Assembly (NCBI GenBank): GCA_963664225.1
Contig: OY760937.1
Location: 5,134,744-5,198,743 of the forward strand
Length of the DNA: 64,000 nucleotides
Origin: Verrucomicrobiia bacterium
GTDB taxonomy: Bacteria; Verrucomicrobiota; Verrucomicrobiia; Limisphaerales; UBA1319
Direction: 5' to 3'
Shown: in pieces, positions 2,527 to 22,912 of the stretch
How positions within the stretch are numbered: position 1 is the first letter of the stretch
How the letters are laid out: each line of letters starts with the position of its first letter
Translations under genes and position numbers: made by a program
Notes under the pieces: generated by a model
Told to the model about the DNA's origin: nothing
Databases searched by the model: none
What the model saw: only the letters and a program-made list of their open reading frames with translations

Positions 2527-3035
2527 GTTTGGTATCGTTTGTAATGGATGAATAACCGACCGGATGATGCGAATTCAATGTTTATTGGTGGGATCGATCT
2601 GCGATGGGGGGATTGCGCGACCTGGTTTGCAGTTGCTTCTATTATTCGCATTTTTTGTTGGACGATTCAAAGCGCATCAACTGAATATTTTGGCAAAAGT
2701 GTGCCGGATAACCTGTCACAGTAAAGATTCCAGTGTGACAGACTGACTCAAATGGCACAGGTTGGAATTCGCGATTGATGGCTTTAATAAAAACGTAAGT
2801 AGTTTAATCGGAATTAATTATATATAAATATACTCCAATGGCATCTTAATTGCTGGAAGGGTGCCAGTTACGGATGAGCGGTTAGGGTATTACTATGGAA
2901 GCCGCCACTGGTGCCTGAAGGCCGAATTGGATTGGGATCCCAAAAAAGGATTCCCATGACGATGAGGGCTTCGGGCTGAATATGTGGTGGGATGGGTTCA
3001 GTTCATCGTTGGATTGAAAAATTTATATAAAGAAT

Positions 3036-4976
3036 ATGGCAAAGGTACTTGGCATTGATTTAGGGACAACCAACTCTTGTATGGCGGTCATGGAGGGTGG
3101 AGACCCAGTGGTGCTTGAAAATTCCGAGGGCAAGCGCACCACGCCATCGGTGGTGGCATTTACAAAGACAGGCGAACGTTTGGTGGGTGAGGCGGCCAAG
3201 CGCCAGGCTGTGACCAATTCGCGCAATACGATTTATTCCATCAAGCGATTCATGGGGCGCAAGTTTGACGAGGTCCAGGAAGAGATCAAACGCATCCCCT
3301 ACAAGGTCGTGCGCGCCAGCAATGGAGACGCCGCGGTGGAAGTGGAAATCGACGGCCAGCCCAAACTGTTCAGCCCGCCCGAGATTTCGGCGATGATTCT
3401 GGCCAAGCTCAAAGCCGATGCGGAGATGCGCCTGGGCGAGAAAATCACGCAGGCGGTGGTTACTGTTCCCGCCTATTTCAACGATTCTCAACGCCAGGCC
3501 ACCAAGGATGCCGGTCGCATCGCGGGTTTGGAAGTGCTGCGTATTATTAATGAGCCGACGGCCGCATCACTCGCCTACGGTTTGGACAAGAAAAAGGACG
3601 AGAAGATCGCGGTTTACGATCTGGGCGGCGGCACATTCGACATCTCAGTGCTCGAAATTGGCGATGGCGTTTTCGAGGTCAAGGCGACCAACGGGGATAC
3701 GCATTTGGGCGGCGATGACTGGGATAACCGGATCATGGATTGGATTCTGGATGAATTCAAGAAGGACCAGGGAATTGATTTGCGCAAACAGCCAGACGCC
3801 TTGCAACGCATCAAGGAGGAGGCTGAAAAGGCCAAGATCGCGTTATCGAGCGCGCAGCAATATGACATCAACCTGCCTTTCGTGACGGCGGATGCCTCCG
3901 GGCCCAAGCACATTTCAACCAAGCTGACCCGGGCAAAAATGGAGCAGTTGTGCGACGATTTGTTTGAGCGCACGGTCATTCCGGTGAAGAATTGTCTGCG
4001 GGATGCGGATCTAAGCGCGGCCAAGATTGACGAGTTGGTGCTGGTGGGTGGCATGACCCGCATGCCGCGCGTGGTCGAGACGGCGCATACGCTGGTGAAC
4101 AAGGCCCCGCATCAGGGAGTGAACCCGGACGAAGTGGTGGCCGTGGGCGCCGGCATTCAAGGCGGCGTGCTCAAAGGCGACGTCAAGGACGTGCTGTTGC
4201 TCGATGTGACCCCGCTGTCGCTGGGCATCGAAACGTTGGGCGGAGTATTCACGCGCTTGATCGAGCGTAATACGACTGTTCCCACGCGCAAATCAGAGAT
4301 TTTCTCCACGGCATCGGACAACCAGCCCGGGGTTGAAATTCATGTGCTGCAAGGAGAGCGGCCGATGTCCCGGGACAATAAGACGATCGGTAAATTCCAA
4401 TTGACGGACATTCCTCCGGCCCCTCGCGGCATGCCGCAGATTGAGGTGACTTTTGACATCGATGCCAATGGCATCTTGCATGTCAGCGCCAAGGATCTGG
4501 GCACGGGCAAGGAGCAGAAAATCACGATCACCGCCAGCAGCGGCCTGAGCAAGGACGAGATCGAGAAGATGCGCAAAGAGGCGGAACTCCATGCGGAGGA
4601 TGACAAGCAGCAACGTGAATCCATTGAGGCGCGCAATGAAGCCGATAATGGGGTTTATCGCTCGGAAAAAATGCTGCGCGATAATGCGGATAAGATTTCA
4701 GCGGGTGACAAGGAGAAGATTGAGAAGGCGGTGGTTGCGGTCAAGGAGGCGCTCAAAGGCACTGATGCCGCGGCGATCAAGACTGCGAGCGAGAAACTCA
4801 ACGAAGCCTGGCAATCTGTTTCCGCGGAACTTTACAAGGCGGCGGCGGACAAGGCCCGCGCTGAGAAACCTTCTGCGGGTGGACCTGATCCCGCATCCGC
4901 TCCCAAGGATTCGTCCGGCAAGAAGGATGACGGTCCCATCATCGATGCGGAAGTGGTCGATGACAAAAAGAATTAA
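3036..4976 (+). CDS. dnaK: Molecular chaperone DnaK (Hsp70)
   Basis: 646 aa; [11 protein letters not shown] and DLGGGTFD motifs; full Hsp70 architecture. Confidence 0.97.
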
Positions 4977-5114
4977 CGCCCGCATGGCCGCGCCGCTCCT
5001 GAACGGAGGGGCGCGACCCGGGCAAATTTTAACCAGTCATAATCAAGTTCTCCCGGCGGGTGCGCGGGAGGAAAAACACTCGGTTAAACAACCAACAACA
5101 AAGGAAATACCAAC

Positions 5115-5408
5115 ATGGCTATGAACCTTAAACCGCTCGGAGATCGTATCCTCGTGGAACTGGTCGAAGAGAAGGAAGTTAAGAAGGGTGGCATCATCAT
5201 TCCCGATGCCGCGAAGGAAAAACCGACCGAAGCGACCGTTGTGGCGCTGGGCACGGGCAAGTTAGACGATCAGGGCAAGAAGATCGCTTTTGAAGTCAAA
5301 AAGGGCGACCGGGTGCTGATCAGCAAATATGGCGGTACGGATGTCAAAGTCGAGGGCAAGGAATACAAGCTGCTCAATAGCGACGACATCCTGGCGATCA
5401 TCGATTAA
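5115..5408 (+). CDS. groES: Co-chaperonin GroES
   Basis: 97 aa; typical Cpn10 sequence ([10 protein letters not shown]...GDRVL). Confidence 0.95.
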
Positions 5409-7094
<1,686 letters not shown>

Positions 7095-7493: not shown

Positions 7494-8291
7494 TTATTTA
7501 GGCTCGGACACGACATTCATCTGCAATGTGACCGCAGTCTGGGCCAGCGCCCGGCCTTCCAGAGAGGCGCCGGTTTGCATTGCAATCGCGGTCTGGCACA
7601 AGATGATTCCCTTGAACTGAGCCGTCGTTCCAATGGTCGTTGCGCCGGCTATCTGCCAGAAGACGTTCTTGGCCTGGGCGCCGCCGGTCAGGGTGACAAT
7701 GGCCCCGTTGCCGACGGTCAGCCCCTGCGCTATCTGGAAGATCCAGACCGCATTAGCGTCCCCTTGGGCGTCGAGTGTGACCGCGGTGGGAATGAGCACC
7801 GGTGTGGCCCATTTGTAGAGGCCCGGAGCGATTCGCATCCCGTCAATATTTCCGGCCCCGAGTTCAACGGCAGCGGGTAACGTCCGGCCCGCAGCGTCAG
7901 TGTATGCGGTTTCCATGGCGCTGACCGCCGCAGTCAATAAAACGGGGTAGGTCACCTTGCAAGCGGGACCCGCAGCGTCCACGGTGTAGATGGTCCCGGT
8001 TACTTCCGCGCAGCCCAGGCCCGTAATGGCAGCACCGGTGATTGGACTTGTTCCAATATTGCCAGTGATGGCAGAGGAAGGAACATCGGTGACTCCTGTT
8101 TTGGAGAGAATCGCAAAACTGCCGGCCCAACCGAGATCAACCGGCGCCAGAGCAGCCATTCCTGCGGAGGCACTGGAGAGCAACGCCAAGAGGGCGGCCA
8201 TCAAACTGATGGAGATTTTATTATTCGACGCTGTGCAGATAAGCGGCGCGGGTGCGCCTACGGTTTGTTTTACCTCTTGATTGTTATGCAT
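7494..8291 (-). CDS. Secreted ice-binding-like protein (DUF3494 family)
   Basis: 265 aa; signal peptide; Thr/Gly/Ala-rich beta-solenoid-like sequence with a VTLDAQGDANAVWIFQI motif typical of the DUF3494 ice-binding family. Confidence 0.6.
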   Translation of the reverse strand: MHNNQEVKQTVGAPAPLICTASNNKISISLMAALLALLSSASAGMAALAPVDLGWAGSFAILSKTGVTDVPSSAITGNIGTSPITGAAITGLGCAEVTGTIYTVDAAGPACKVTYPVLLTAAVSAMETAYTDAAGRTLPAAVELGAGNIDGMRIAPGLYKWATPVLIPTAVTLDAQGDANAVWIFQIAQGLTVGNGAIVTLTGGAQAKNVFWQIAGATTIGTTAQFKGIILCQTAIAMQTGASLEGRALAQTAVTLQMNVVSEPK

Positions 8292-8742
8292 GTGATTTTT
8301 TTGTTTTGATGATTAATTATTTAACCAACTGCATGAGAGTGGACCGGGAGGCGCGCGGGGTCTATTCAGGGGTATACCCCGGGGGACTTCCCCCCATCGG
8401 AGGTTTGCTCAAGGATCGCGAAACCGCGACGCGAGTGTTCACCCCATGGTTTGATGCGGTTCTGATCATCCTTGTTTGCAGTGATAGCATCCCTGAATCC
8501 TGAAGTTTCGACAAAAAGGGCTGAAGTTCCATCCTCAGAAGGCACCGCTTATAAATCAACCGGAACATCCGACATGCATATTTCAGAATCGAGAGGACTT
8601 CCAATTCTGAACTTTGGCGTCCTTTATTTTGAGATAACCCGCTTTTTTTGGAATAAAGCGGGTATTGACACATTTAGACAGGTTCTATACCATGTCCAAG
8701 CTTGTCCAAATAGTGGGACAAAAAGTCTTAATTTAAGAAAAA

Positions 8743-9450
8743 ATGCAGCTCACGGTAAGAGATGTCGCTGAATTGCTGAACGTTTCCGAAAAAAGCGTTT
8801 ACCGATGGATTACAGACGGGAATTTGCCCGCCTATCGCGTCAGCGGGCAGTACCGTTTTAACCGCGCAGAGCTGTTGGAATGGGCCACTGCAAAGAAGAT
8901 TAACGTTTCTCCCAAAATATTTGAGGAGAGCGAGGCGGGGGCCGGGGAGTTGCCTGATTTGGCGGATGCTTTGCAGGCAGGCGGGATTTACTACCGCATG
9001 GGCGGCAACGACAAGGCAGGCGTCCTGCGGGGGATTGTGGACGCAATGCGATTGCCCGATGAGGTGGACCGCAATTTCCTGTTGCAGGTTTTGATGGCGC
9101 GCGAGGCGTTGGAATCGACGGCGATCGGGGATGGAATCGCGATTCCACATGTGCGAAATCCGATTGTTCTGCATGTGGCCAAACCGATGGTGATGCTGAG
9201 CTTTCTTGAAAAGCCGGTGGCTTTTGGAGCGTTGGACGGGCAGCCGGTCCACACGCTTTTCTCCCTGGTAAGTCCCACCGTGCGGTCACATTTGCATTTA
9301 TTATCGCGGATAGCGTTTGCGCTCCGGGACCCGGGATTTAAGGAAATCGTTCTGCGACAGGGAAGTCGGGAAGAAATCCTGGAAGGGGTAAAGCGGGTTG
9401 GAAGTGGGAAGAAGACTCCCACTGAGGTTGTCAGCCAGGAGCGTCAATGA
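8743..9450 (+). CDS. Putative transcriptional regulator: HTH (MerR/excisionase type) + PTS EIIA type-2 domain
   Basis: N-terminal VRDVAELLNVSEKSVYRWI HTH; C-terminal domain with EIIA-2/EIIA-Ntr signature GDGIAIPHVRNP (phosphorylatable His). Its stop overlaps the start of hyfB-like gene. Confidence 0.65.
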   Translation: MQLTVRDVAELLNVSEKSVYRWITDGNLPAYRVSGQYRFNRAELLEWATAKKINVSPKIFEESEAGAGELPDLADALQAGGIYYRMGGNDKAGVLRGIVDAMRLPDEVDRNFLLQVLMAREALESTAIGDGIAIPHVRNPIVLHVAKPMVMLSFLEKPVAFGALDGQPVHTLFSLVSPTVRSHLHLLSRIAFALRDPGFKEIVLRQGSREEILEGVKRVGSGKKTPTEVVSQERQ

Positions 9451-11441
9451 GCCTTTTGTTGCTGGCAATGGGGATTTGGGTGGGAAGTGGGCTGATGGCC
9501 TTGTTTTTTCCACATAATCCCAAACTGGCAACGGCAGTGGGCGCTTGGGGGTTGATTGCGGGCGCGATTTTGGCGGTTTTTCCTGTAGTTCGTGTTCTCA
9601 TGGGGGGGGCGGTTGGAGAGAGCCGCCTCCCGATGAGCCTGCCTGGAGGCAGTTTTTTCATTCAGTTGGACGCGCTTTCCGCGTGGTTCATTCTTCCAAT
9701 GCTGTTGCTTCTAGTTGCAGCCGCCCTCTATGCCGTGGATTACATGGCCGCGTTTCGAGAACGGCACTTGGGGGTTCCCGCCTTATTCTTTAACCTGCTG
9801 GCCACCAGCATGGTGATGGTCGTTTTGTCCCGCAACGCGGTGCTCTTCCTGATGTCATGGGAGGTGATGTCGGTGACCTCTTTTTTCCTGGTAACCTTCG
9901 AAGATGAAAAGCCCAAAGTGCGCGAGGCGGGTTGGGTGTACTTGATCGCAACCCATTTGGGGACGGCTTCCATTTTTGTCCTTTTTGTCTTGATGGGTCG
10001 CGAGGCTGGCTCGATGGATTTCGATAAGTGGGCGGCGATGGGGACAATTGGAACATGGCCCGGAGGAATGGCGGGGTCGATGTTTATTCTGGCGGTGATC
10101 GGGTTCGGCACCAAGGCGGGTTTCATGCCTTTTCATGTGTGGCTGCCTGAGGCGCATCCGGCGGCGCCAAGCCATGTCTCGGCCGTCATGTCTGGAGTGA
10201 TGATCAAGACGGGGGTTTATGGGGTATTGCGGATGCTCACGTATTTGGGAACGCCCGCCGCATGGTGGGGCTGGTTACTTTTGGGGGTGGGTCTGGTGTC
10301 GGGAATATTGGGGGTGATCAATGCGCTCGCGCAGCACGACTTGAAGCGGTTGCTGGCGTATAGCAGCGTGGAGAATGTGGGGATCATGACCATCGGCATG
10401 GGTATCGGAGTCCTGGGCATTTCGATGGCGGCCCCTGCGGTTGCGATTTTGGGCTTCAGCGCCTGTCTGCTTCATTTTGCGAATCATGCCATGTTCAAGG
10501 GCCTTCTGTTTCTGGGGGCTGGCAGCATTTTGCACGTGACTGGCACGCGGCAAATGGATCGGCTGGGCGGTTTGCTGAAAAAAATGCCGGTGACGGGTTT
10601 ATGCTTTTTGCTGGGGGTGGTGGCAATCTGCGGGCTGCCGCCGATGAACGGATTTATTGGGGAGGTCGTTCTTTTCATGGCGGGATTCAAGGCGGCAACC
10701 TCGCTGGAGCTGTCCAGGGCGATTGCGGGTGTGGCGGTGATTCTGGGAATGGGCTTGATCGGCGGTCTGGCCGTGGTCTGTTTTACTAAAGCCTTCGGAA
10801 TCGTTTTTCTCGGGGAACCGCGGGGCGGGGAGGAACAACATGCCCACGAGAGTGGAAGGTGGATGCAGACGGGCATGGCGATCCTGGTTTGCGCCTGCAT
10901 TTGCGCCAGTCTGGCAGCGCCCATCCTCATCCGCAAAGCCAGTGAGATCGCGGCTGGAATGGGGCGGTACGATCACAACGCTGCAGTGTTGAATCTGGCG
11001 GCGTTTTCGAATGTCATGAACCTGGTGGTCCTGGTTTTTCTCGTCCTCGGATTGCTTATTGCGTTGTTGGTCTGGATGCGTTCACGTTTGCTGTCAGGTC
11101 GCAAGATTGAATCGGCCGCCACATGGGGCTGCGGTTACGTGGCGTCCTCGTCACGGGTGCAATACACTGGCTCCTCGTTTGTTCAGCCGGCAACCATGCT
11201 CTATCGGTTGGTGCTAAGGATGCGACGCCGTTATTCCACGCCGAAAGGTTTTTTCCCGAGTCATTCCTCGTTTTTAAGTGAAACTCCGGATGTCTGGCAA
11301 CGGGTTATTTACGGACCGGCTTTTGCAAGCCTGGCAGCATGGTTGTCCAAGTTGCGATGGCTGCAACAGGGCCAGGTGCAGCTTTATGTGCTGTATATGG
11401 CGGCGACTTTGCTGGCGCTGCTGATCTGGAAGTTGGGCTGA
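9447..11441 (+). CDS. Formate hydrogenlyase subunit 3 / hydrogenase-4 component B-like antiporter subunit (NuoL/Mrp-like)
   Basis: 664 aa polytopic membrane protein; WLPEAHPAAPSHVSAVMSG and LLAYSSVENVG motifs of the complex I antiporter-like family. Confidence 0.85.
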   Translation: MSLLLLAMGIWVGSGLMALFFPHNPKLATAVGAWGLIAGAILAVFPVVRVLMGGAVGESRLPMSLPGGSFFIQLDALSAWFILPMLLLLVAAALYAVDYMAAFRERHLGVPALFFNLLATSMVMVVLSRNAVLFLMSWEVMSVTSFFLVTFEDEKPKVREAGWVYLIATHLGTASIFVLFVLMGREAGSMDFDKWAAMGTIGTWPGGMAGSMFILAVIGFGTKAGFMPFHVWLPEAHPAAPSHVSAVMSGVMIKTGVYGVLRMLTYLGTPAAWWGWLLLGVGLVSGILGVINALAQHDLKRLLAYSSVENVGIMTIGMGIGVLGISMAAPAVAILGFSACLLHFANHAMFKGLLFLGAGSILHVTGTRQMDRLGGLLKKMPVTGLCFLLGVVAICGLPPMNGFIGEVVLFMAGFKAATSLELSRAIAGVAVILGMGLIGGLAVVCFTKAFGIVFLGEPRGGEEQHAHESGRWMQTGMAILVCACICASLAAPILIRKASEIAAGMGRYDHNAAVLNLAAFSNVMNLVVLVFLVLGLLIALLVWMRSRLLSGRKIESAATWGCGYVASSSRVQYTGSSFVQPATMLYRLVLRMRRRYSTPKGFFPSHSSFLSETPDVWQRVIYGPAFASLAAWLSKLRWLQQGQVQLYVLYMAATLLALLIWKLG

Positions 11442-11444
11442 ACC

Positions 11445-12353
11445 ATGAACATCAGTGCGATACTTTCACTTCTGGTGGGTCTGGCTCTGGCGCCTTTGTT
11501 GCCGGGGATCATTAACCGCGTGAAGGCGAAGTTTGGCGGGCGGCGGGGCCAGCCCATTCTTCAAATGTATTTCGATCTCTGGAAGCTTCTTCACAAAGGC
11601 GCGGTTTACAGCCGCACGACAACCTGGGTGTTTCAGGCGGCGCCCATTGTTGGCCTGGCCGCGGTGATTGCAGCCATGCTGATTGTTCCCTTTGGAGGCG
11701 CGAACGCCCTGGTTGGTTTTCCCGGGGATCTGGTGCTCATGGCGGGGTTGCTGGGCCTGGGCCGGTTCTTCACGATGATTGCGGCATTGGATACAGGATC
11801 CAGTTTCGAGGGAATGGGGGCCAGCCGCGAAGCCCATTTTTCGGCGCTGGGGGAACCGGTTTTGCTCCTGGCATTGGCGGTCGTGGGACGCAAAACGGTT
11901 AGTTTTTCACTTTCCGACATATTTGGCGCGCTGACACCCTGGCACTGGGCGCAAAGCTTTGTGCCTCTGGCCCTGGTGGTGACGGTTCTTCTGGTGGTGA
12001 TGCTGGCGGAAAATGCGCGCATTCCCGTGGATGATCCCAATACCCATCTGGAGTTGACCATGATCCACGAGGTGATGGTGCTCGATCATGGCGGTCCTGA
12101 TTTTGCGTTTATCGTTTATGGAGCGGCCTTGAAACTCTGGCTGATGGGCGCGCTCTTGGTGAATGTGCTTCTGCCTATTCATTCAGGGCATCTCTGGATC
12201 GATCTGGCGGTGGGTGTCATCGGCATGTGTGGTGTGGCGGTGGTGGTCGGCATCATTGAGTCGATCATGGCACGATTGCGCTTGTTATTTGTGCCCCAGT
12301 TGTTGGTTGGGGCGGGGGTCATGGCGGCGGTGGCCTTGGTGGTGATGCAATAG
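11445..12353 (+). CDS. Hydrogenase-4 component C / HycD-like membrane subunit (NuoH family)
   Basis: 302 aa; NuoH/HycD-like hydrophobic profile, and its position after the B-like gene. Confidence 0.8.
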   Translation: MNISAILSLLVGLALAPLLPGIINRVKAKFGGRRGQPILQMYFDLWKLLHKGAVYSRTTTWVFQAAPIVGLAAVIAAMLIVPFGGANALVGFPGDLVLMAGLLGLGRFFTMIAALDTGSSFEGMGASREAHFSALGEPVLLLALAVVGRKTVSFSLSDIFGALTPWHWAQSFVPLALVVTVLLVVMLAENARIPVDDPNTHLELTMIHEVMVLDHGGPDFAFIVYGAALKLWLMGALLVNVLLPIHSGHLWIDLAVGVIGMCGVAVVVGIIESIMARLRLLFVPQLLVGAGVMAAVALVVMQ

Positions 12354-12360
12354 GCCCTGT

Positions 12361-12996
12361 ATGGTTGATTTTATACTAATTTTGGTGGTGTTGACAAACT
12401 TCTGGCTCTTGGGGACGAGCCGGCTGGGTTCAAGTATTCGTGTGGTGGCTTTACAGGGTGTCCTGTTGGGCCTTCTGCCATTGGCGGCACATCTCCATGC
12501 CACTCCCATGCGTGTGATGGCTTTGGCGGCCGGGAGTATTCTGCTCAAGGGCATGGTTTTCCCACGGTTATTGTTTCGGGCCTTGCGCGAGGCGGATGTG
12601 ACGCGTGAAGCGGAGCCTTTTGTCGGTTACGTCCTCTCCCTTCTCATTGGGGTGATGGCGCTGGGTCTGTCGTTTTGGATGGGCGGCCGGTTGCGGATGG
12701 AAAGTCCGGTGGTCTCCGCCATGATCCTTCCCGTGGCCTTCTTCTCCCTCATGGCGGGATTCTTCCTGATTGTGGCGCGCAAAAAGGCGGTGCATCAGGT
12801 TCTTGGCTTTTTGGTGTTTGAAAACGGGGTTTACACTTTCGGTATTGGGGCGATGCAGGAAGCCACACTGCTGGTCGAACTGGGCATTCTACTGGATGTC
12901 TTCGTGGGTGTGTTTGTCATGGGTATCGCCATTTTTCACATCAGCCGCGAATTCGATCACACCGAGACGGATCGTTTGTCATCCCTGAAGGACTAA
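12361..12996 (+). CDS. Hydrogenase-4 component E-like membrane subunit
   Basis: 211-aa small polytopic membrane protein placed between the C-like and F-like subunits, as in hyf operons. Confidence 0.65.
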   Translation: MVDFILILVVLTNFWLLGTSRLGSSIRVVALQGVLLGLLPLAAHLHATPMRVMALAAGSILLKGMVFPRLLFRALREADVTREAEPFVGYVLSLLIGVMALGLSFWMGGRLRMESPVVSAMILPVAFFSLMAGFFLIVARKKAVHQVLGFLVFENGVYTFGIGAMQEATLLVELGILLDVFVGVFVMGIAIFHISREFDHTETDRLSSLKD

Positions 12997-12998
12997 GA

Positions 12999-14477
12999 AT
13001 GATCCCGGCATTGATACTGATTCCATTTTTCGCCGGTCTGGCGGCTTTTGCGCTCAGAATGACACAGGTGCGCCGGGGGTTGTTGGTCCTGGTGGCCGTG
13101 GTGCACTCCGCGCTGGTTCTATCCTGCTGGTTGCATCGGCCGGAGGCGGCATTGGGTGGCGGGCTGCAACTCGATTCGCTGGGCTTGATATTCCTATCCA
13201 TTGCCAGCGGGGTCTTTTTGGTGGCTTCCATTTACGCGCTAGGGTATTTGCGCATGCAACCTCTCCATCCGGAACCCGATCCAGAGGAGGGGCGGCTGTT
13301 CACCAACGCGCCCGAGGGGGTGTTTATTGGATGTTTGCTGATGTTTTTGTCCGCCATGACCCTGGTCACCACGAGCGAGCATTTGGGTTTGTTATGGATC
13401 GGGGTGGAAGCGACCACGCTGGCCAGCGCGCCGTTGATTTATTTCCATCGTCACCATCGGTCATTGGAAGCGGTGTGGAAGTATCTGTTGATTTGTTCAT
13501 TGGGCATTGCCCTGGCCTTGCTGGGCAATTTCTTTCTGGGTGTGGCGGGAACCCGTTTGCCCGATGGCGAGGACTCAATGATGGTTTCGGTCCTCGTCAA
13601 GAATGCCAGCCTGTTGCACGCGCCCTGGTTGCGCGCGGCGTTCATCCTGTTTTTAGTCGGTTACGGAACGAAGATGGGACTGGCCCCGCTGCACACATGG
13701 CTGCCGGACGCCTACAGCGAAGCCCCCTCCGTGGTCTCCGCGTTGCTATCCGGGGCGTTGTCGAATTGCGCTTTCCTGGGAGTCCTCCGGGTGCTGCAAA
13801 TCTGCGTGGCCGCGAACCAGGGCGATTTCGCCCGGGAATTGATGGTGATCATGGGACTGCTCTCGATGGGCGTGGCGGCAGTGTTCATTCTCAAACAGGC
13901 CGATTACAAGCGCCTTCTGGCTTATTCCAGCGTCGAGAACATGGGGATCATGAACCTCGGCGTGGGATTGGGCGGGGTGGGGGCCTTTGGTTCCATGCTT
14001 CACGCCGTGAACCATTCGCTTATCAAGACGATGCTGTTTTTGGTCGCGGGAAACATTCTGATGGTTTTCAAATCCAAATCCGTAAGCGCCGTTCGTGGCA
14101 TGTTCCGCGTAATGCCCGCATCCGGTGTTTTATGGATTGCTGGATTTTTGGCCATCACGGGCACGCCACCGTTCGGACCGTTCTTGAGCGAATTTACGAT
14201 TCTAAAAGCGGCCTTTGCGAATGGACGTTTTGTGGTGGGCGGCTTGTATATGTTTCTGTTGGCGGTGATTTTTATCGGTATGTCCACTGTCTTTCTGCGC
14301 ATGGCGCAAGGCACTCCTGATGCCTCCAATGCGGCGGACCGGGGCAGCCTTCATCCATTGATGATCTGGCCGCCGGCCGTGCTGTGCGTCGCGGTTTTGA
14401 TGTTGGGAGTCTATATTCCGCCAGCGTTGGCAGGTGTATTGATGGAGGCTGCAAAGACTGTGGGAGGCTTGGTATGA
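12999..14477 (+). CDS. Hydrogenase-4 component F-like antiporter subunit (NuoN/NuoM family)
   Basis: 492 aa; WLPDAYSEAPSVVSALLSG and LLAYSSVENMG antiporter-family motifs. Confidence 0.85.
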   Translation: MIPALILIPFFAGLAAFALRMTQVRRGLLVLVAVVHSALVLSCWLHRPEAALGGGLQLDSLGLIFLSIASGVFLVASIYALGYLRMQPLHPEPDPEEGRLFTNAPEGVFIGCLLMFLSAMTLVTTSEHLGLLWIGVEATTLASAPLIYFHRHHRSLEAVWKYLLICSLGIALALLGNFFLGVAGTRLPDGEDSMMVSVLVKNASLLHAPWLRAAFILFLVGYGTKMGLAPLHTWLPDAYSEAPSVVSALLSGALSNCAFLGVLRVLQICVAANQGDFARELMVIMGLLSMGVAAVFILKQADYKRLLAYSSVENMGIMNLGVGLGGVGAFGSMLHAVNHSLIKTMLFLVAGNILMVFKSKSVSAVRGMFRVMPASGVLWIAGFLAITGTPPFGPFLSEFTILKAAFANGRFVVGGLYMFLLAVIFIGMSTVFLRMAQGTPDASNAADRGSLHPLMIWPPAVLCVAVLMLGVYIPPALAGVLMEAAKTVGGLV

Positions 14478-15949
14478 GCAGCACCTCGGCCTGTGTGACG
14501 CATAACGCGGTGCCCGTGAAGTGGGTGGATATTTCCGTTCTGCCCATTGCGGATTTTCGCGCGGCCATTCTCCGGGAAGCCAGCCTCGGAAACCGAATGG
14601 CGGCTTTGTTTGGAATTCCATCGAAAGAGGGCGGTCTTAGATTGCTGGGTGTCATGGCCAATGGCGGTTCCAGCGCGTTATCGTTGTATTCGACACCGGT
14701 CAAGGATCGGTATCCATCATTGACTCCTGAGTGTCCTCAAGCGCAGGGGTTTGAGCGGGAGATATTCGAGCAATGGGGAGTGATGCCAGAGGGCCATCCG
14801 TGGCTTAAACCCGTGCGCGCCACCTCTTCTGCGACTTCGGCATCGCCGTTTTTTGTCGTGGATGGTGTTGAGGTTCATGAAGTGGCAGTTGGGCCGGTCC
14901 ATGCCGGAATCATCGAACCCGGTCATTTCCGTTTTCAATGCCACGGCGAGCAGGTGTTCCACCTGGAAATATCGTTAGGCTATCAACACCGGGGCATTGA
15001 GCGGCGCCTGGTCGGCGGGCCTGACCGTCGGACGATGCATTACATGGAGACCGCCGCAGGCGATACGACGGTCGGTCATGCCAGCGCCTATTGCCAGGCT
15101 GTCGAGGCGCTATCGGGATGCAACGTGTCAGCACGAGCCCAGGTTTTACGGGCCGTCGCGTTGGAACTGGAGCGTCTGGCCAATCATACCGGAGACCTCG
15201 GTGCAATGGCCGGGGACATCGGTTTTCTGCCCACCTCGTCGTTTTGCGGTCGGATTCGTGGCGATTTTCTCAATATGACCGCGCTGCTGTGCGGGAGTCG
15301 GTTTGGTCGGAATTTGGTGCAGCCCGGGGGTTTGGGATTCGAGGCGGAGCCGGAACGATTGGAAAAACTGGGCGCTCAATTGGACCGCGCATTGAAGGAT
15401 GTCACGGTTGCGTGTAACCTTCTTTGGAATACCACTACTGTGCGCGCGCGTTTTGAAAATACAGGCACCCTGAAAAATCAGGATTGTCTGGATCTGGGTC
15501 TGGTAGGTGTTGCGGCCAGGGCCTGCGGTGTCGAACGGGATGTGAGGCACGAGTTTTCCGGGGGAGCGTATCGGTTTTTCCAATTGCCTGTTTCGACCTT
15601 TAACTCCGGCAACGTATTCGGACGTGCATACGTCCGCTGGATGGAAATTCAACGTTCGATCGCCTTCATTAAGGATATGATTCGAACGATGCCTGGCGGC
15701 GAAATTCGTCAGCCGATGGATGAATTGGCGGCCGGTTCTCTGGTGGTTTCGATGGTTGAAGGATGGCGTGGGGAGATCTGCCATGTCGCCACCACGGACG
15801 ATGCGGGACGGTTCCGACATTATAAGGTAATCGATCCGTCCTTTCATAATTGGATGGGGTTGGCTTATGCAATGCGCGATCAGCAAATCTCCGATTTTCC
15901 GCTGTGTAACAAGAGTTTCAATCTTTCCTACTGTGGCCACGATCTTTAA
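14474..15949 (+). CDS. NuoC-NuoD-like 'large subunit' homolog (HycE/HyfG family) lacking the NiFe-binding cysteines
   Basis: Aligns to the HycE core (GPVHAGIIEPGHFRF ... LELERLANH), but the L1 motif RxCGxC is replaced by DTTV and the C-terminal DPCxxC is degenerate (NLSYCG). Start taken at the ATG overlapping the previous stop. Confidence 0.8.
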   Translation: MSSTSACVTHNAVPVKWVDISVLPIADFRAAILREASLGNRMAALFGIPSKEGGLRLLGVMANGGSSALSLYSTPVKDRYPSLTPECPQAQGFEREIFEQWGVMPEGHPWLKPVRATSSATSASPFFVVDGVEVHEVAVGPVHAGIIEPGHFRFQCHGEQVFHLEISLGYQHRGIERRLVGGPDRRTMHYMETAAGDTTVGHASAYCQAVEALSGCNVSARAQVLRAVALELERLANHTGDLGAMAGDIGFLPTSSFCGRIRGDFLNMTALLCGSRFGRNLVQPGGLGFEAEPERLEKLGAQLDRALKDVTVACNLLWNTTTVRARFENTGTLKNQDCLDLGLVGVAARACGVERDVRHEFSGGAYRFFQLPVSTFNSGNVFGRAYVRWMEIQRSIAFIKDMIRTMPGGEIRQPMDELAAGSLVVSMVEGWRGEICHVATTDDAGRFRHYKVIDPSFHNWMGLAYAMRDQQISDFPLCNKSFNLSYCGHDL

Positions 15950-15955
15950 GAGGAC

Positions 15956-16759
15956 ATGATTAAAGCGCTTTTAGCACGAAAACAGCAGGGATGCCGAACA
16001 ATCGGTTATCCTGATTCCGCGCCGGTATTGCCGGAGCGTTTTCGCGGGCGGCCGTTGGTGGATGCCAACCTGTGCGAGCTGCAGTGTCACTCCTGCGTGG
16101 AGGCTTGTCCCACGGGCGCCATCGCCCTTTCCGGAAATCAATTGGAGTTTGATTTGGGGCGCTGCCTCTTTTGCCTGGATTGCTCAGAAGCATGTCCGAA
16201 AGGCGCGATCCAACATTCCAAGGATCACAGCATGGCTGCGCGGCGCCGGTCGGATTTGGTCGTCCGCAACGGGACGACTCAGGCCCTGGCAAAGGCTTTG
16301 GACGCCCAGTCTCAAAAGGTCTTCGGACATTCCCTGAAGCTGCGCCAGGTCAGCGCTGGTGGATGCAACGCGTGCGAGGCGGATGTCAACGTTTTGGGAA
16401 CCGTTGTGTTCGATCTGGGGCGTTTTGGCATTCAATTTGTGGCCTCGCCCCGTCATGCCGACGGTATTCTGGTGACAGGTCCGGTAACAGCTAATATGCG
16501 TCTGGCGCTGGAAAAGACCTTTGAAGCCATTCCGTCCCCGAAATTTGTGATTGCCGTTGGCGCATGCGCGATTTCTGGAGGCCCTTTTGTGGATCATAAG
16601 GAAGTGAATAACGGCGCGGAAAATGTGATTCCGGTCGATTTGTTCATACCTGGCTGCCCGCCGCATCCCATCACCATTTTGGATGGTTTATTGCGGTTGC
16701 TTGGGCGATTGCAGGAGCCCGCTCAGGCGGTTTCCAGCGAAAAGGCGGCTCTGACATGA
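15956..16759 (+). CDS. Fused 2x[4Fe-4S] ferredoxin (HycF/NuoI-like) and small subunit (HycG/NuoB-like)
   Basis: N-terminus has two CxxCxxCxxxCP motifs; C-terminus has NuoB-like GGCNAC...SPRHADGILVTG...GACAISGG...PGCPP cluster-binding motifs. Confidence 0.8.
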   Translation: MIKALLARKQQGCRTIGYPDSAPVLPERFRGRPLVDANLCELQCHSCVEACPTGAIALSGNQLEFDLGRCLFCLDCSEACPKGAIQHSKDHSMAARRRSDLVVRNGTTQALAKALDAQSQKVFGHSLKLRQVSAGGCNACEADVNVLGTVVFDLGRFGIQFVASPRHADGILVTGPVTANMRLALEKTFEAIPSPKFVIAVGACAISGGPFVDHKEVNNGAENVIPVDLFIPGCPPHPITILDGLLRLLGRLQEPAQAVSSEKAALT

Positions 16760-16844
16760 GGCGCTGTAATTTAAAAAAACTGACTTTAGCCGTGGTTGGG
16801 CTTAAAACTGAGCCTTACCCGGTTATTTATCCGAGTTGTTTGTG

Positions 16845-17252
16845 ATGAAAAATGTAATCGAAATTTTGTATAGCCTTCAACAGTTGGAACTGGGAGGTGA
16901 GTCTGATTCTCCGAAGACAGCGGAGGAGATTAGTAATTTGCGCAAAGGCGTGCCAACGCCGATCATGGGGCATTACGACCGGTTGAGGGCTCGTGGAAAG
17001 AAAGGAGTGGCGATTGTCCGCAATTCCGTCTGCACCGAGTGCCATATGAAGCTGGCCACCGGCATTAATGCCGAACTGATTCGCGCCGAAGACATTCTGA
17101 TCTGCGATAGTTGCGGGCGTTACTTGCTGGCCGCAAACGAATCGGCGGAATCCTCCGTCGAAGTCGCGCCTCCGGTTGAAACAGCGCCGGTCGCCAAGAA
17201 GAAAGCCGTTCGCAAACGGACCAAGAAATCCGAACTTCCTGCCGCATCTTGA
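16845..17252 (+). CDS. C4 zinc-ribbon domain protein
   Basis: About 135 aa; CTECHMKL...CDSCGRYL paired Cys motifs (zf-RING_7-like); Lys-rich C-terminus. Confidence 0.5.
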   Translation: MKNVIEILYSLQQLELGGESDSPKTAEEISNLRKGVPTPIMGHYDRLRARGKKGVAIVRNSVCTECHMKLATGINAELIRAEDILICDSCGRYLLAANESAESSVEVAPPVETAPVAKKKAVRKRTKKSELPAAS

Positions 17253-17492: not shown

Positions 17493-17520
17493 TTGACTTT
17501 GGCGCATTCACCCTTATATT
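17493..17520 (+). promoter_or_regulatory. Sigma-70-like promoter (TTGACT-N16-TATATT), with an overlapping AT-rich near-palindrome as a candidate Fur box
   Basis: Near-consensus -35/-10 elements about 60 nt upstream of the Fur-family gene; TAATAGGTATTA imperfect palindrome just upstream. Confidence 0.45.
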
Positions 17521-17578
17521 GCCCCAAGGTGAATACGAGTCGGAATGATGAGTTGACTGGAACTGAGGGTCGCGAGCG

Positions 17579-18065
17579 AATGGCCACCAATGGTTACCGC
17601 TTGACGCCACAGCGCAGACAGGTTTACAGCATTCTGCTGAACCAGAGGGATCATCCCACCGCCAACGAGGTTTTCCTCAGGGCCAAGCAGGTCATGCCCG
17701 ATATCTCCATGGCCACGGTTTATAACTGTCTCGACGCGCTGGTGGAATGCGGTTTGGTGCGCCAAGTCAATCTGGACCGGTCGGCAACCCGTTTTTGTCC
17801 GAATATGGATCCGCATTGTCACTTCTTTTGCGAGAAGTGCGGTCACATATTTGACATCGATTTCGATCCTCAATCCATGCGCACCGAGGTGAGCATTCCG
17901 GCAGGATTCGAGGTGACGCATTTTGGACTGGCCTTGCGCGGGAAATGCCCTCAATGCGCGGCGACGGCGCACCCGCAACCGACCCGCAAAGATCAGGGTC
18001 CGACCGATGAACCTTCAATGGCTGCCAACGAGACAGCCCTTGGCAATGGCGCCCGAGGCGATTAA
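17579..18065 (+). CDS. Fur-family metalloregulator (Fur/Zur/PerR)
   Basis: YRLTPQRRQVYSIL winged-helix, HCHFFCEKCGHIFD metal-binding region; sits immediately upstream of sufB. Confidence 0.8.
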
Positions 18066-18181
18066 GTCGGTTCCAATGCAAATACTTGGGCGGAATTTTG
18101 ACAAACCTCTGAAGTGCGTTAAGTTAACATTGGAATGAGAATTAGTCTCAATATTGAATCACGGAAGCATTTTGAAATCGC

Positions 18182-19639
18182 ATGAACTCTGGCACTGAAA
18201 GCACTGAAACCATCGATCAATTCGTTCAAGGCGAGTATAAATTTGGCTTTGTTACGCAGATTGATTCGGACGCGGCACCCATCGGCCTGACCGAAGACAC
18301 GGTTCGGTTTATTTCGGCCAGGAAGAACGAACCGCCGTTTCTGCTGGAGTGGCGTCTGAAAGCTTACCGGCACTGGCTGACGATGAAACCGCCGGTGTGG
18401 CCGAATGTTCAATTTCCGCCGATCGATTATCAGAAAATAATTTTCTATTCGGCGCCCAAGCAGGCGAAGCCGGGACCCAAGAGCCTGGACGAGGTGGATC
18501 CCAAGCTGATTGAAACCTACAAGAAACTCGGCATTCCCTTGCATGAGCAAATGCGTCTGGCCGGAGTGGCCGTGGATGCGGTGTTCGATAGCGTGAGCGT
18601 GGCCACCACGTTCAAGGAAAAGCTCAGCGAGCTTGGAGTCATCTTTTGTTCCTTCTCCGAGGCGGTGCGCGAGCATCCCGACCTGGTGCGCAAGCATTTG
18701 GGATCGGTGGTTCCGCACACGGATAATTATTATGCGGCCTTGAATTCGGCGGTATTCAGCGACGGCTCATTTTGTTACATCCCCAAGGGGGTGCGATGCC
18801 CGATGGAACTCTCCACCTATTTCCGCATTAACGCGGCGAATACAGGACAGTTCGAACGCACTCTCATCGTCGCCGAGCCGGGAAGCTATGTGAGTTATCT
18901 GGAGGGTTGCACGGCGCCCATGCGGGATGAAAACCAACTGCACGCCGCCGTGGTGGAATTGGTCGCGATGGACGATGCGGAGATCAAATACTCCACGGTG
19001 CAGAACTGGTATCCAGGCGATGAGCAGGGCAAGGGCGGCATCTACAATTTCGTGACCAAACGCGGCATGGCCCGGGGACGGAACTCGAAAATATCGTGGA
19101 CTCAGGTCGAGACGGGCTCGGCGATTACATGGAAATATCCGAGTGTCGTTCTCCTGGGCGACAATTCGACAGGTGAGTTTTACTCGGTGGCCCTGACCAA
19201 TCATTACCAGCAGGCCGACACGGGAACCAAGATGATCCACATTGGCAAGAATACGCGCAGCACCATAGTCTCCAAGGGTATTTCCGCCGGTCATGGCCAG
19301 AACAGTTACCGGGGACTCGTGAAGGTGATGAAAGGCGCCGATGGGGCGCGCAATTATTCGCAATGCGATTCGCTGCTGCTGGGCGACAAGTGCGGCGCGC
19401 ATACGTTCCCCTATATCGAGACCATGAATCCGACCGCGCAGGTGGAGCACGAGGCCTCCACATCGAAGATTGGCGAGGACCAGATCTTTTATTGCAATCA
19501 GCGCGGCCTGGATACCCAGGATGCGGTAAGCATGATTGTCAATGGATATTGCAAGGAAGTGTTCAAGCATCTGCCGATGGAGTTTGCGGTGGAGGCCCAG
19601 AAGCTTCTCGGGGTGAGTTTGGAAGGCAGCGTGGGTTGA
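18182..19639 (+). CDS. sufB: Fe-S cluster assembly protein SufB
   Basis: 485 aa; strong SufB similarity throughout. Confidence 0.93.
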
Positions 19640-19672
19640 CGCAGAAAGAAATTACAGAAGGAAAATTGAATT

Positions 19673-20431
19673 ATGTTGGAAATCAAGAATCTGACGGCGC
19701 GAATCGGCGATAAGGAAATTTTGCGAGGCATTAATCTCTCGGTGAAACCCGGAGAAGTGCATGCGATCATGGGGCCCAATGGCAGCGGTAAAAGCACGCT
19801 GGCACAGGTGTTGGTTGGGCGTCCCGAGTATCAGGTGACCGCCGGAGAAGTCGTCTATCAGGGGAAGGATCTCTTGGGATTGAAGCCCGAGGAACGCGCG
19901 CGGGAAGGGGTATTTCTCGCTTTCCAGTATCCGGTGGAAATTCCTGGAGTGAACTGCACCTATTTTTTGAAAACGGCATTGAATGCGGTCAGAAAACATC
20001 GCGGGTTGGAGCCTTTGGACGCCATCGATTTTCTGGCCCACATCAAGGACAAGATGAAGCTGCTCGAATTGGATCAGGCGCTGTTGAACCGCCCGGTCAA
20101 CGAGGGTTTCTCCGGCGGCGAGAAGAAGCGCAACGAAGTGTTTCAGATGGCTGTTCTCGAGCCTTCGCTGGCGATCCTGGATGAAACAGATTCCGGCCTG
20201 GACATCGATGCCTTGCGGATTGTGGCCGAGGGCGTCAACCGCCTCAAGCGGCCGACTCAGGCTCAGATCGTCATCACGCACTATCAACGCCTGCTCAACT
20301 ATATCGTGCCCGATTTTGTGCACGTGCTTTACAACGGGCGCATCGTCAAGAGCGGCGGCAAGGAACTGGCTCTGGCCCTTGAGGAAAAGGGTTATGACTG
20401 GATCATTGATGAAGTCGGTGTGAAGAATTGA
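19673..20431 (+). CDS. sufC: Fe-S cluster assembly ATPase SufC
   Basis: 252 aa; Walker A GPNGSGKST; SufC family. Confidence 0.93.
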   Translation: MLEIKNLTARIGDKEILRGINLSVKPGEVHAIMGPNGSGKSTLAQVLVGRPEYQVTAGEVVYQGKDLLGLKPEERAREGVFLAFQYPVEIPGVNCTYFLKTALNAVRKHRGLEPLDAIDFLAHIKDKMKLLELDQALLNRPVNEGFSGGEKKRNEVFQMAVLEPSLAILDETDSGLDIDALRIVAEGVNRLKRPTQAQIVITHYQRLLNYIVPDFVHVLYNGRIVKSGGKELALALEEKGYDWIIDEVGVKN

Positions 20432-20437
20432 TCCGGC

Positions 20438-21868
20438 GTGAAACCAACAGACGCTTTTATGAATTCGACAGGCACATTGGAAGCAACGGGAGTGAGGGAA
20501 TCGGATTATTTCCTGACGGAGTTCGAGCGGTTGCTTGCTTTGGAACCCCGTGAGACTCCGCTTTGGCTGCGCGCGATTCGCAAGTCAGGAATCGCCCATT
20601 TCGCGGATTCCGGTTTTCCAACCATGCGGGATGAGGAATGGAAATACACCAATCTGGAGATCTTGCGTGACAGGCAGTTTTTGACCGCTGTAAGTGATTC
20701 GGCATTGGAACCTACCGCCGCCGTTCTCGCGCGTGTGCCCTGGTTTAACACCATTCCACGGCGCGTTGTTTTTGTGAATGGACATTTTGCGTCCGGTTTA
20801 TCCAACTGCCCGGAGACTGATGGCGGACTTAAGATCTCGAGTTTGCGCAGGGCCATTCAGGAGGATCCCCGCGCGATCGAACATCATCTGGCCCGGTACG
20901 CTCTGCCATCGGACCAGCCATTCGTCGCCTTGAACACGGCCTTTTTCCAGGACGGCGCGTTCATTCACGCGGGAAAAAGCGTGGACGACCGGGTCCCGGT
21001 GCATTTGATATTCATTGCGACTCGTCCAGATGCTGGAGTGGCATTTCAAACCCGGAATTTGATTGTCGCGGAGGCGGACAGCCGGCTGGCGGTTGTGGAA
21101 ACCTATATCAGTCTGGGCGCTGAGCAGTATTTTACAAACAGCGTAAGCGAGATTGTTTTGGGCGAAAATGCGACGGTGGAGCATTTGAAAATCCAGCAGG
21201 AGAGCGCCGCAGCTTGTCACATGGCAACCATTCAGGCGCATCAAGCCGCAAACAGTCATTTTACATCCCATTCCATCGCGCTTGGCGCGCGGGTGGCGCG
21301 CAACGATATTCGCGCCGTTTTCGATGGATCCGGCGCGGAGTGCCTGATGAACGGACTCTACATTGCCTCGGATCATCAACTGACCGATCACCATACTGTG
21401 ATCGATCATGCGAAACCCAATTGCTCCAGTCATGAGCATTATCAGGGCATCATGGCGGGTTCGGCCCGTGGCGTGTTCAATGGAAAAATCTTTGTCCGCA
21501 AGGACGCCCAAAAAACGGACGCCAAACAGACCAATCGCAATCTGCTCCTTTCAGAAAACGCGGTGATCGATACCAAGCCCCAATTGGAAATCTTTGCCGA
21601 CGACGTGAAATGCACGCATGGCGCGACTGTGGGGCAACTGTCCCAAGAGGCGCTGTTCTATTTGCGTTCGCGGGGCATTGGCATCGAGGAGGCGCGGCGC
21701 ATGTTGATTCAAGCTTTTGCAAGCCAGGTATTGGGCCGCATTGGCATTCAAGGGGTGGTGCCGCTGTTGGAGAAGTGCATTTTGGAGATCATCGGCAGGA
21801 TCGAATTGCCGGACAACGCGACTAGTCATAAGAACGCCGTTTCCGATGAAAGGAGTTCCCATGCCTGA
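20438..21868 (+). CDS. sufD: Fe-S cluster assembly protein SufD
   Basis: 476 aa; SufB/SufD fold; gene order between sufC and sufU. Confidence 0.85.
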   Translation: MKPTDAFMNSTGTLEATGVRESDYFLTEFERLLALEPRETPLWLRAIRKSGIAHFADSGFPTMRDEEWKYTNLEILRDRQFLTAVSDSALEPTAAVLARVPWFNTIPRRVVFVNGHFASGLSNCPETDGGLKISSLRRAIQEDPRAIEHHLARYALPSDQPFVALNTAFFQDGAFIHAGKSVDDRVPVHLIFIATRPDAGVAFQTRNLIVAEADSRLAVVETYISLGAEQYFTNSVSEIVLGENATVEHLKIQQESAAACHMATIQAHQAANSHFTSHSIALGARVARNDIRAVFDGSGAECLMNGLYIASDHQLTDHHTVIDHAKPNCSSHEHYQGIMAGSARGVFNGKIFVRKDAQKTDAKQTNRNLLLSENAVIDTKPQLEIFADDVKCTHGATVGQLSQEALFYLRSRGIGIEEARRMLIQAFASQVLGRIGIQGVVPLLEKCILEIIGRIELPDNATSHKNAVSDERSSHA

Positions 21869-22313
21869 CGATCTGAACGAGCTTTATCAGGAGGTGATTC
21901 TTGACCACAGCAAGAACCCCAAGAATTTTGCGCCTTTGGATGATGCCAACCGCATGGCCCAGGGTCGAAATCCGGTTTGCGGTGATCAGGTGACCATCTT
22001 CATGAATGTGGAAGAGGGCGTGATCAAGGACATCACCTTTCAAGGCTCGGGTTGCGCCATTTCCAAGGCTGCGGCCTCGATGATGACCTCAAGCCTGAAG
22101 GGCAAGTCCATCGCCGAAGCCAAAACATTGTTCGATAAGGTGCAGGAGATTGTCACGACAGGGGAAGGCAACCTGGACGAAGTGGGCAAGCTGGCCGCGT
22201 TTGCCGGTGTGCACAAATTTCCGGCCCGCGTGAAGTGCGCCATGCTGCCATGGCGGGCGGCCATCGCGGCAATGGAGCACCCCGAAATCAAGGAGAATGT
22301 TACAACCGAGTAA
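21861..22313 (+). CDS. sufU: SUF-system NifU-like scaffold protein SufU
   Basis: 150 aa; NPVCGDQVTI...GSGCAISKA...AMLPW motifs with three conserved Cys; start overlaps the sufD stop. Confidence 0.85.
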   Translation: MPDDLNELYQEVILDHSKNPKNFAPLDDANRMAQGRNPVCGDQVTIFMNVEEGVIKDITFQGSGCAISKAAASMMTSSLKGKSIAEAKTLFDKVQEIVTTGEGNLDEVGKLAAFAGVHKFPARVKCAMLPWRAAIAAMEHPEIKENVTTE

Positions 22314-22316
22314 ATC

Positions 22317-22871: not shown

Positions 22872-22912
22872 CGGAGACGCATTGGAATGCGGGGGAATAT
22901 TACATTGAATCT

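Follow-up and report, generated by a model that had tools for sequence, protein, structure and literature searches.

A stretch of 64,000 nucleotides from a Verrucomicrobiia bacterium (assembly GCA_963664225.1, contig OY760937.1, positions 5,134,744 to 5,198,743 of the forward strand), referred to as the window, was analyzed around a predicted regulator gene at 8743..9450 on the plus strand and the operon that it heads. The gene starts with ATG and encodes a protein of 235 amino acids (aa), which is given the working name EhrR and possesses two domains. The N-terminal one, at residues 3-51 (8749..8895), is a winged helix of the HTH_17/excisionase type, matched by Pfam HTH_17 (PF12728; E 7e-17, 61.8 bits against a cut-off of 27) and by the NCBIfam model TIGR01764 for excisionase family DNA-binding proteins (53.8 bits against 28.8). 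The second, at residues 87-216 (9001..9390), is a type-2, PtsN-like EIIA domain, matched by Pfam PTS_EIIA_2 (PF00359; E 4e-22, 79.2 bits against a cut-off of 27) from profile position 13 to 141 of 144, that is, as a complete domain. The initial annotation had described the first gene of the cluster as a helix-turn-helix (HTH) domain joined to a complete EIIA domain with the phosphorylatable histidine in the motif GIAIPH, and both domain families agree with it. The histidine of GIAIPH is His136 (codon CAT, 9148..9150), a putative phospho-acceptor. In phmmer alignments with PtsN from E. coli (1a6j) it pairs with the phospho-acceptor His73, and Arg120 and His183 pair with the active-site residues Arg57 and His120. 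The three residues are invariant in 50 of 50 close homologues. Of 77 distant representatives (38-65% identity), 69 have the equivalent of His136, 70 that of Arg120 and 74 that of His183. The histidine of the initial annotation is confirmed in the alignment with PtsN. The recognition helix of the HTH domain, SEKSVYRWI, is likewise invariant among close homologues.

An AlphaFold2 model of EhrR built on 77 family members reached a predicted local distance difference test (pLDDT) of 93.9 and a predicted template modelling (pTM) score of 0.79. Its best matches in a Foldseek search of the PDB are four EIIA(Ntr)/PtsN structures with TM(target) scores of 0.72-0.81. SLC4/band 3 transporters are also among the fold matches, and no solved PDB chain in this search spans both domains. 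Homologues of EhrR appear in databases only under the names "PTS sugar transporter subunit IIA" or "nitrogen regulatory IIA component", where PTS stands for phosphotransferase system. The best-scoring NCBIfam EIIA families for EhrR are PtsN models, far under their equivalog cut-offs (TIGR01419, 60.3 bits against 138.7; NF008145, 56.7 against 221). EhrR was thus rejected as PtsN itself, being in addition a 235-aa fusion and not a free-standing protein of about 160 aa. A regulator with PRD domains of the MtlR/LicR/ManR kind was rejected as well, with no PRD or EIIB match in Pfam at E <= 0.01.

The genes behind the regulator are encoded on the same strand. The stop codon TGA of EhrR (9448-9450) overlaps the ATG (9447-9449) of a 664-aa HyfB-like antiporter-type membrane subunit (9447..11441; Pfam Proton_antipo_M; NCBIfam hydrogenase 4 subunit B, 597 bits), as the initial annotation had stated. 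It is followed by genes for a HyfC/NuoH-like subunit (11445..12353; Pfam), a HyfE-like subunit (12361..12996; Pfam and NCBIfam), a HyfF-like antiporter-type subunit (12999..14477; Pfam and NCBIfam) and a NuoC/D-like large subunit without NiFe cysteines (14474..15949; signature ETAAGDTTVGH ... KSFNLSYCGHDL), the start of which at 14474 is confirmed by the exact match of the 491-aa product to a database entry. The last subunit gene (15956..16759) encodes a ferredoxin with two [4Fe-4S] clusters, HyfH/NuoI-like, fused to a NuoB-like small subunit, and the cysteines for three clusters are all present.

Ehr complexes are defined as kin of group 4 hydrogenases that lack the metal ligands (PMC6349859). 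In the large subunit of the window, Ala, Thr, Ser and Gly stand in place of Cys241, Cys244, Cys531 and Cys534 of HycE from the E. coli formate hydrogenlyase (7z0s_E). As none of the four NiFe cysteines is kept, the downstream complex belongs to the Ehr type, and the label "Ehr-like" of the initial annotation was well chosen; the operon also encodes the subunit set of Ehr complexes, namely HyfB, C, E and F together with the NuoC/D-like and NuoI+NuoB-like proteins. A true Hyf/Hyc group 4 [NiFe] hydrogenase was rejected, since neither the L1 motif RxCGxCxxxH nor the L2 motif DPCxxCxxR is present. In the related loci examined, the NiFe motifs are replaced with minor variants by E(T/S)xAGD(T/S)(T/S)(I/V)GH and a C-terminal KSFNLSYCGH, and the CxxC pairs are missing from these replacement motifs in the large-subunit homologues of the surveyed loci. 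The conservation of the replacement motifs denotes a distinct and constrained Ehr subfamily instead of a decayed hydrogenase, and suggests that a conserved chemistry takes place at the former active site. In the alignment with Thermus Nqo4, the window protein has Gly at the position of Tyr87, the residue that binds quinone.

Conservation of the module of EhrR and the Ehr operon

More than 7,700 database matches were found for the EhrR family. The best 120 of these matches are all two-domain proteins of about 235 aa with 65-93% identity, and an exhaustive profile-free search gave 404 clusters at 50% identity with E < 1e-30. By scanning one genome per GTDB species, EhrR was found in at least 596 species. 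The best 80 of these carriers include Verrucomicrobiota, Planctomycetota, Acidobacteriota (Thermoanaerobaculia), Binatia, Myxococcota, Elusimicrobia, Methylomirabilota, Krumholzibacteriia and Omnitrophota; Fontivita pretiosa, with the complete genome NZ_CP191258, is a cultured carrier within Planctomycetota.

A HyfB-like gene lies within 4.5 kb downstream and on the same strand in 116 of the 118 testable loci, which are those with at least 1.5 kb of downstream sequence. The gene pairing seen in the window is thus kept across phyla. The two exceptions are the locus L149, where the operon is divergent, and the locus L150, which has no ehr genes. The arrangement in L149 means that the regulator need not be co-translated with HyfB. 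When the Ehr proteins of the window were used as tblastn queries, the full set of Ehr subunits was found behind the regulator in every locus of the best 80 carriers with enough downstream DNA, and the flanks outside the module vary from locus to locus. The same pairing was observed in a second scan of metagenome contigs, seeded with four members of a distant EhrR branch that is about 41-55% identical to the window protein. The reverse approach, in which three loci from Gemmatimonadota, Phycisphaerae and one other lineage were chosen through the large subunit alone, led to a gene with HTH_17 and EIIA domains at the beginning of all three. As judged from gene content, hundreds of species, belonging to more than ten phyla, have this predicted gene at the head of an Ehr operon of the same kind. 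The initial annotation had called such a regulator unusual for a complex I-like module; this is right for complex I in general, but in the present Ehr subfamily, where the pairing is near-universal, it is the rule.

The regulator gene is usually tightly packed against the operon. Among 136 loci with an adjacent HyfB-like gene, a stop/start overlap of 1 or 4 nt is possible in 75 and a gap of 0-20 nt separates the two genes in 45. In identity to the window proteins, EhrR (65-77%) equals or exceeds every enzyme subunit, with about 50% for HyfB and about 60-65% for the others.

Variants of the module were found as well. Some loci contain a close copy of EhrR, extra genes, a second and divergent HTH+EIIA paralogue, and then the Ehr genes. 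The extra genes are one or two PF00361 antiporter-type genes in L049, L062 and L039, and in L042 (2084-7489) a SulP-STAS anion transporter gene is located between two EhrR paralogues, ahead of hyfB. A SulP-STAS gene is also found near the EhrR-like gene of L150 (6219-10885), the one that has no ehr operon. This context hints at a functional link of the EhrR family to anion or bicarbonate-type transport. In L076 from Planctomycetia, the ehr operon is directly followed by a gene for a CNNM-CBS-EIIA fusion (8487-10049), a putative transporter of Mg2+ or other cations that ends in a C-terminal EIIA domain of type 2. According to these predicted domain arrangements, ion-transport proteins of these lineages have more than once acquired an EIIA-type module, either by fusion or by a gene placed before their own. 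Taken together with the unusually high conservation of EhrR and its translational coupling, this makes a role at the protein level beside DNA binding conceivable.

Promoter and putative operator

The 450-bp intergenic region upstream of EhrR, to which the initial annotation had drawn attention, contains one good promoter of the sigma-70 type with 10 of 12 matches, consisting of a -35 box TTGACA (8665..8670), a spacer of 17 nt and a -10 box TACCAT (8688..8693). Sharing one base with the end of the -10 box, a proposed operator begins at 8693, the tandem direct repeat TGTCCAAGCTTGTCCA (8693..8708) with the form TGTCCA-N4-TGTCCA and a 10-bp period, which spans the expected transcription start and is the sole exact TGTCCA-N4-TGTCCA of the window. 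A second tandem pair with two mismatches, TGTCTAAATGTGTCAA, lies inverted over the -35 box and the spacer (8665..8680, minus strand), and the -35 box itself can also be read on the minus strand as a degenerate half-site TGTCAA. A further putative inverted half-site was read from the sequence in the leader (GGGACA on the plus strand; 8715..8720, minus strand); as seen by eye, a TGGACA copy recurs at the matching position in many Verrucomicrobial loci.

When 82 upstream regions of 200 nt were scanned on the plus strand with up to two mismatches allowed, 62 of them had the operator, against about one expected from the background rate of 192 matches on both strands of 1.36 Mb of loci. The N4 spacing is kept in 88 of 88 sites found on either strand, and the consensus across loci is aTGTCCAaagaTGTCCAa. 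Of the 73 loci that were aligned, 47 have a hexamer similar to TTGACA that begins 28 nt before the first repeat, which places the site right at the end of the -10 box. In another 11, mostly from Binatia, delta-proteobacterial and Methylomirabilota loci, the hexamer begins 6-7 nt upstream, so that the repeats fill the 17-bp spacer. The orientation of the repeats is reversed in several Planctomycetota, and copies of the TGGACA type follow the -35 box in other loci.

The presence of the site tracks the recognition helix: it accompanies the helix SEK[TS][IVL]YRW in 84 of 96 loci and other helices in 3 of 60, counts that are uncorrected for shared ancestry. Because of this association, and because the helix is invariant in the close family, EhrR is by far the most likely binder of the TGTCCA operator. 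In either of the two layouts the repeats coincide with core promoter elements, and a spacer of 17 bp is of optimal length, which makes repression by occlusion the most likely sign of regulation as inferred from operator position. A classical activator of the MerR type was rejected: PF00376 scores 18 bits against a cut-off of 28.2, the C-terminal part of the protein is an EIIA domain, the operator is a direct repeat and the promoter spacer is 17 bp.

Directly 5' of the -35 box lies a hairpin with a 9-bp stem (ACCCGCTTT ... AAAGCGGGT; 8637-8663). A clean T-tract is missing from both strands, and nothing credible was returned when 8100-8900 was scanned with Rfam. The hairpin could be an insulator or terminator for a small open reading frame at about 8309-8503, or another protein-binding site.

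Putative phosphorylation control and its alternatives

Genes of the PTS were found as immediate neighbours of the regulator gene in three of about 155 non-redundant loci, L055, L061 and L150. By a rough estimate, about 0.2 cases would be expected by chance if a genome has some 4,000 genes, of which four or five belong to the PTS. In L055 from Planctomycetia (2606-6871), a HisKA kinase, an NtrC-type sigma-54 activator and an HPr homologue precede EhrR and the ehr genes. This HPr is unusual, with His15 present, Leu in place of Arg17 and no Ser46, and a near-consensus sigma-54 promoter, TGGCAC-N5-TTGC, is located before its gene at about 5704-5719. A search with it gave 16 matches, and the two contexts inspected are ordinary hprK/EIIA(Man)/HPr/EI clusters unlinked to EhrR, one of which also has rpoN. 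In L061 from Thermoanaerobaculia, a gene for a complete Enzyme I (EI) with the N, mobile and C domains of PEP-utilisers (phosphoenolpyruvate, PEP) is divergent from EhrR (7893-9806, minus strand); a MazF/RHH toxin-antitoxin pair lies behind this gene. In L150, an NtrC-type activator and a PtsN-like EIIA come before the EhrR-like gene.

Control by a PTS(Ntr)-type phosphorelay was the proposal of the initial annotation. Its PTS part agrees with the complete EIIA domain, the catalytic residues and the PTS neighbours in three genomes, so that control of the Ehr operon by a PTS phosphorelay is plausible, but "Ntr" is too specific for a domain that scores 60 bits against the PtsN cut-off of 138.7. 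The ptsP-type EI(Ntr) is restricted to Proteobacteria, and Planctomycetes and Chlamydiales possess a regulatory, permease-less PTS with an "EI-R" group (PMC2405797). The name "regulatory PTS" is thus safer than "PTS-Ntr". As for the signal that would be reported, carbon/nitrogen or K+ status in the initial annotation, any choice is speculation.

The domain make-up and conserved catalytic residues of EhrR, its near-obligate synteny with ehr, the conservation of the operator and the co-variation of operator and recognition helix are shown by comparison. We infer that EhrR binds the operator, in which direction it regulates, that it takes part in phosphotransfer, and which physiological signal it would follow. 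In the explanation that we consider fairly probable, EhrR is a one-component, autoregulatory and probably repressing regulator dedicated to the Ehr operon, the DNA binding of which is set by phosphorylation through the regulatory PTS. The HTH_17 winged helix would bind head-to-tail on the tandem TGTCCA repeats, one helical turn apart, and on inverted copies nearby. These sites lie within the core promoter of the sigma-70 type, in one layout between the -35 and -10 boxes and in the other from the -10 box over the transcription start, so that bound EhrR would block RNA polymerase. The EIIA(Ntr)-like domain, with Arg120, His136 and His183, would most likely be phosphorylated by HPr/NPr~P in a relay from PEP through EI to HPr, and its phosphorylation state would switch the oligomerisation or the DNA binding of EhrR. 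Synthesis of a redox-driven, ion-translocating complex may in this way follow the PEP/pyruvate status, that is, the supply of carbon and energy. Since EhrR is the first cistron and tightly coupled to hyfB, the regulator would be made together with the complex and feed back on its own promoter.

Several observations weigh against this explanation. The association between helix and operator ignores phylogenetic relatedness, and no obvious operator is shared among the members with other recognition helices. No homologue of HPr, NPr, EI or HprK was found in the window by tblastn, for which the queries were the HPr and NPr proteins of B. subtilis and E. coli together with EI, HPr, HprK, RapZ and EIIA(Man) from L087/L089. 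His136 is replaced in 8 of 77 distant representatives, by Gln in two, Glu in two, and Asn, Gly, Leu and Tyr in one each, and phosphorylation cannot therefore be essential in every member. Moreover, a simple transcription factor would seldom be so highly conserved and translationally coupled to a membrane subunit, which hints at an additional role of EhrR at the protein level. Note that the tblastn searches of the window had a sole match, a weak RpoN-like one to the C-terminal part (42327-42458, minus strand; E 5e-4).

EhrR may also autoregulate the operon with an EIIA-like domain that has retained the ancestral fold but serves as a sensor of a ligand or partner and not as a PTS phospho-acceptor; it could respond, for instance, to an ion, to a metabolite or to the condition of the Ehr complex itself. 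The distant members that have lost the histidine, among them the four with Gln or Glu, would be consistent with such a sensor, and so would the scores well under the PtsN equivalog cut-offs and a 64-kb window free of PTS genes. EIIA-like folds are also non-phosphorylated regulatory domains in the SLC4/band 3 transporters, which are among the fold matches. However, the full triad of Arg120, His136 and His183 is kept in 50 of 50 close and in 90-96% of the distant homologues, a degree of conservation hard to explain without catalysis, and three genomes have a gene for HPr, EI or a PtsN-like protein right beside that of the regulator. A sensor of this kind is possible, but we regard it as rather unlikely. 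A further alternative moves the action of EhrR mainly to the protein level. Much as EIIA(Ntr) acts on TrkA or KdpD, EhrR would attach to the membrane protein encoded just behind it, HyfB-like or SulP, and gate the activity or assembly of the complex; DNA binding would be secondary, or the repressor would be sequestered at the membrane as a tethered regulator with two functions. It would explain why the regulator is conserved above the enzyme subunits and why a stop/start overlap or a near-zero gap to the next gene is the norm. It also conforms to the loci L042, L049, L062 and L039, in which each of the two paralogues directly precedes a PF00361 antiporter-type or SulP-STAS gene, and to the fusion of EIIA to transporters in the same lineages (CNNM-CBS-EIIA, L076). 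Against it, an operator that is embedded in the promoter and co-varies with the recognition helix argues for real DNA binding, and the divergent L149 works without translational coupling. We hold a mainly protein-level action to be doubtful.

Both activities could be combined. EhrR would then be a dual switch within a self-contained module of seven genes that has spread over more than ten phyla. Depending on whether His136 is phosphorylated by the regulatory PTS of the host, it would close the operon at TGTCCA or dock on the HyfB-like or, in some genomes, SulP-type protein and tune ion translocation. This is an improbable arrangement in our estimation, though it would account for the stronger conservation of the regulator relative to the enzyme, and, if true, would provide a direct link from the PTS to a respiratory complex at both the transcriptional and the protein level. 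The match of the HTH domain to the family model TIGR01764 could finally be taken to mean that a mobile element lies beside the operon by chance and that EhrR serves it as a recombination directionality factor (excisionase). This candidate was rejected and its probability is next to nil: the domain is fused to EIIA and fixed to ehr in more than 100 loci with otherwise differing flanks, a synteny that practically refutes it, and neither an integrase nor element borders were found in the window flanks or in the gene-annotated loci.

Neighbouring genes and comparison with known systems

Behind the operon of the window lies a gene of the Zn_ribbon_9 family (16836..17252, plus strand), encoding a C4 zinc ribbon distantly similar to CdsZ and possibly an accessory protein. 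It follows the operon in many Verrucomicrobial loci only, and not in other phyla. In several Verrucomicrobial loci, a gene for a Rex-like redox-sensing repressor comes next on the other strand (18470-19153 in L003). In L004 from Methylacidiphilales (191-2615 and 11162-13448), hypC, hypD and hypE are located upstream of the module and NuoE-like and NuoG-like genes downstream; the large subunit there is a 61% identical homologue of the Cys-less one in the window. The divergent upstream neighbour of EhrR in the window encodes an ice-binding-like protein (7494-8291, minus strand; PF11999, E 1e-67), and a Fur/PerR-family regulator together with a full suf cluster (sufB, sufC, sufD, nifU-like, sufT-like and sufS) is found downstream of the module (17493-24181, plus strand). 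Neither the ice-binding-like nor the Fur/suf neighbour is conserved in other loci.

Complexes of the Ehr type are common and are related to complex I and to membrane-bound hydrogenases. Through EhrR, the regulation of an enzyme whose function has yet to be assigned would become accessible for the first time. The complex should be needed wherever EhrR gains or loses its phosphoryl group, and the operator provides a direct assay. PTS-dependent control of transcription would be extended to a minimal architecture of HTH_17 and EIIA without PRD, and would reach into phyla such as Planctomycetes, which were reported to possess only a regulatory PTS without permeases (PMC2405797). The targets of that PTS are poorly known. 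The SulP-STAS and extra antiporter-type genes behind paralogues suggest a wider role in the control of ion and anion transport. The paper on Ehr complexes names no dedicated regulator (PMC6349859), and our literature searches aimed at the HTH_17+EIIA architecture or at Ehr regulation found no description of the family or of an Ehr regulator. Transcription factors controlled by the PTS are already known; the minimal HTH_17-EIIA form, its operator and the near-obligate link to a complex I-like operon appear to be new.

The best match for residues 87-216, both in sequence and in fold, is PtsN, represented by 1a6j (E. coli), 3urr and 4gqx (Burkholderia) and 2a0j (Neisseria). EhrR keeps the equivalents of the phospho-acceptor His73 and of Arg57 and His120. 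PtsN is a regulatory EIIA and not a transport EIIA, and its targets include the ion-transport systems TrkA and KdpD. It is a free-standing protein of about 160 aa that is usually encoded in an rpoN cluster and acts through protein contacts, whereas EhrR is fused to a DNA-binding domain and heads the Ehr operon. In MtlR, LicR and ManR, which have the order HTH-PRD-PRD-EIIB-EIIA, activity is set by PTS-dependent phosphorylation of histidines, including those in a type-2 EIIA-like domain. These regulators have 600-700 aa, PRD and EIIB-like domains, DeoR/Mga-type HTHs and sugar-PTS targets, in contrast to the 235 aa of EhrR, its HTH_17 domain, its lack of PRD and EIIB, and the respiratory-type complex proposed as its target. 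Lineages with EhrR such as Planctomycetes were reported to be without PTS permeases (PMC2405797).

For the HTH domain, the closest solved sequences are RacA and BldC, both with weak scores (E 0.002-0.03), and the NCBIfam BldC model gives 28 bits against a cut-off of 77. BldC of Streptomyces, Xis, TorI and RacA resemble the HTH domain of EhrR in being winged helices of the MerR kind that lack the coiled coil of MerR. On direct repeats, BldC forms cooperative multimers with a head-to-tail arrangement (PMC5859096). This binding mode fits the geometry of the EhrR operator with its one-turn phasing, but BldC and Xis are proteins of 60-70 aa without a sensor domain. Promoters of the MerR type have a palindromic operator and a spacer of 19-20 bp, unlike the ehr promoter with its direct repeat and 17 bp. 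The regulated complex shares the subunit set B, C, E, F, G and H+I with Hyf and the lack of Ni-Fe ligands with Ehr complexes, and the subfamily found in the window carries its own signature AGD(T/S)(T/S)(I/V)GH at the former active site.

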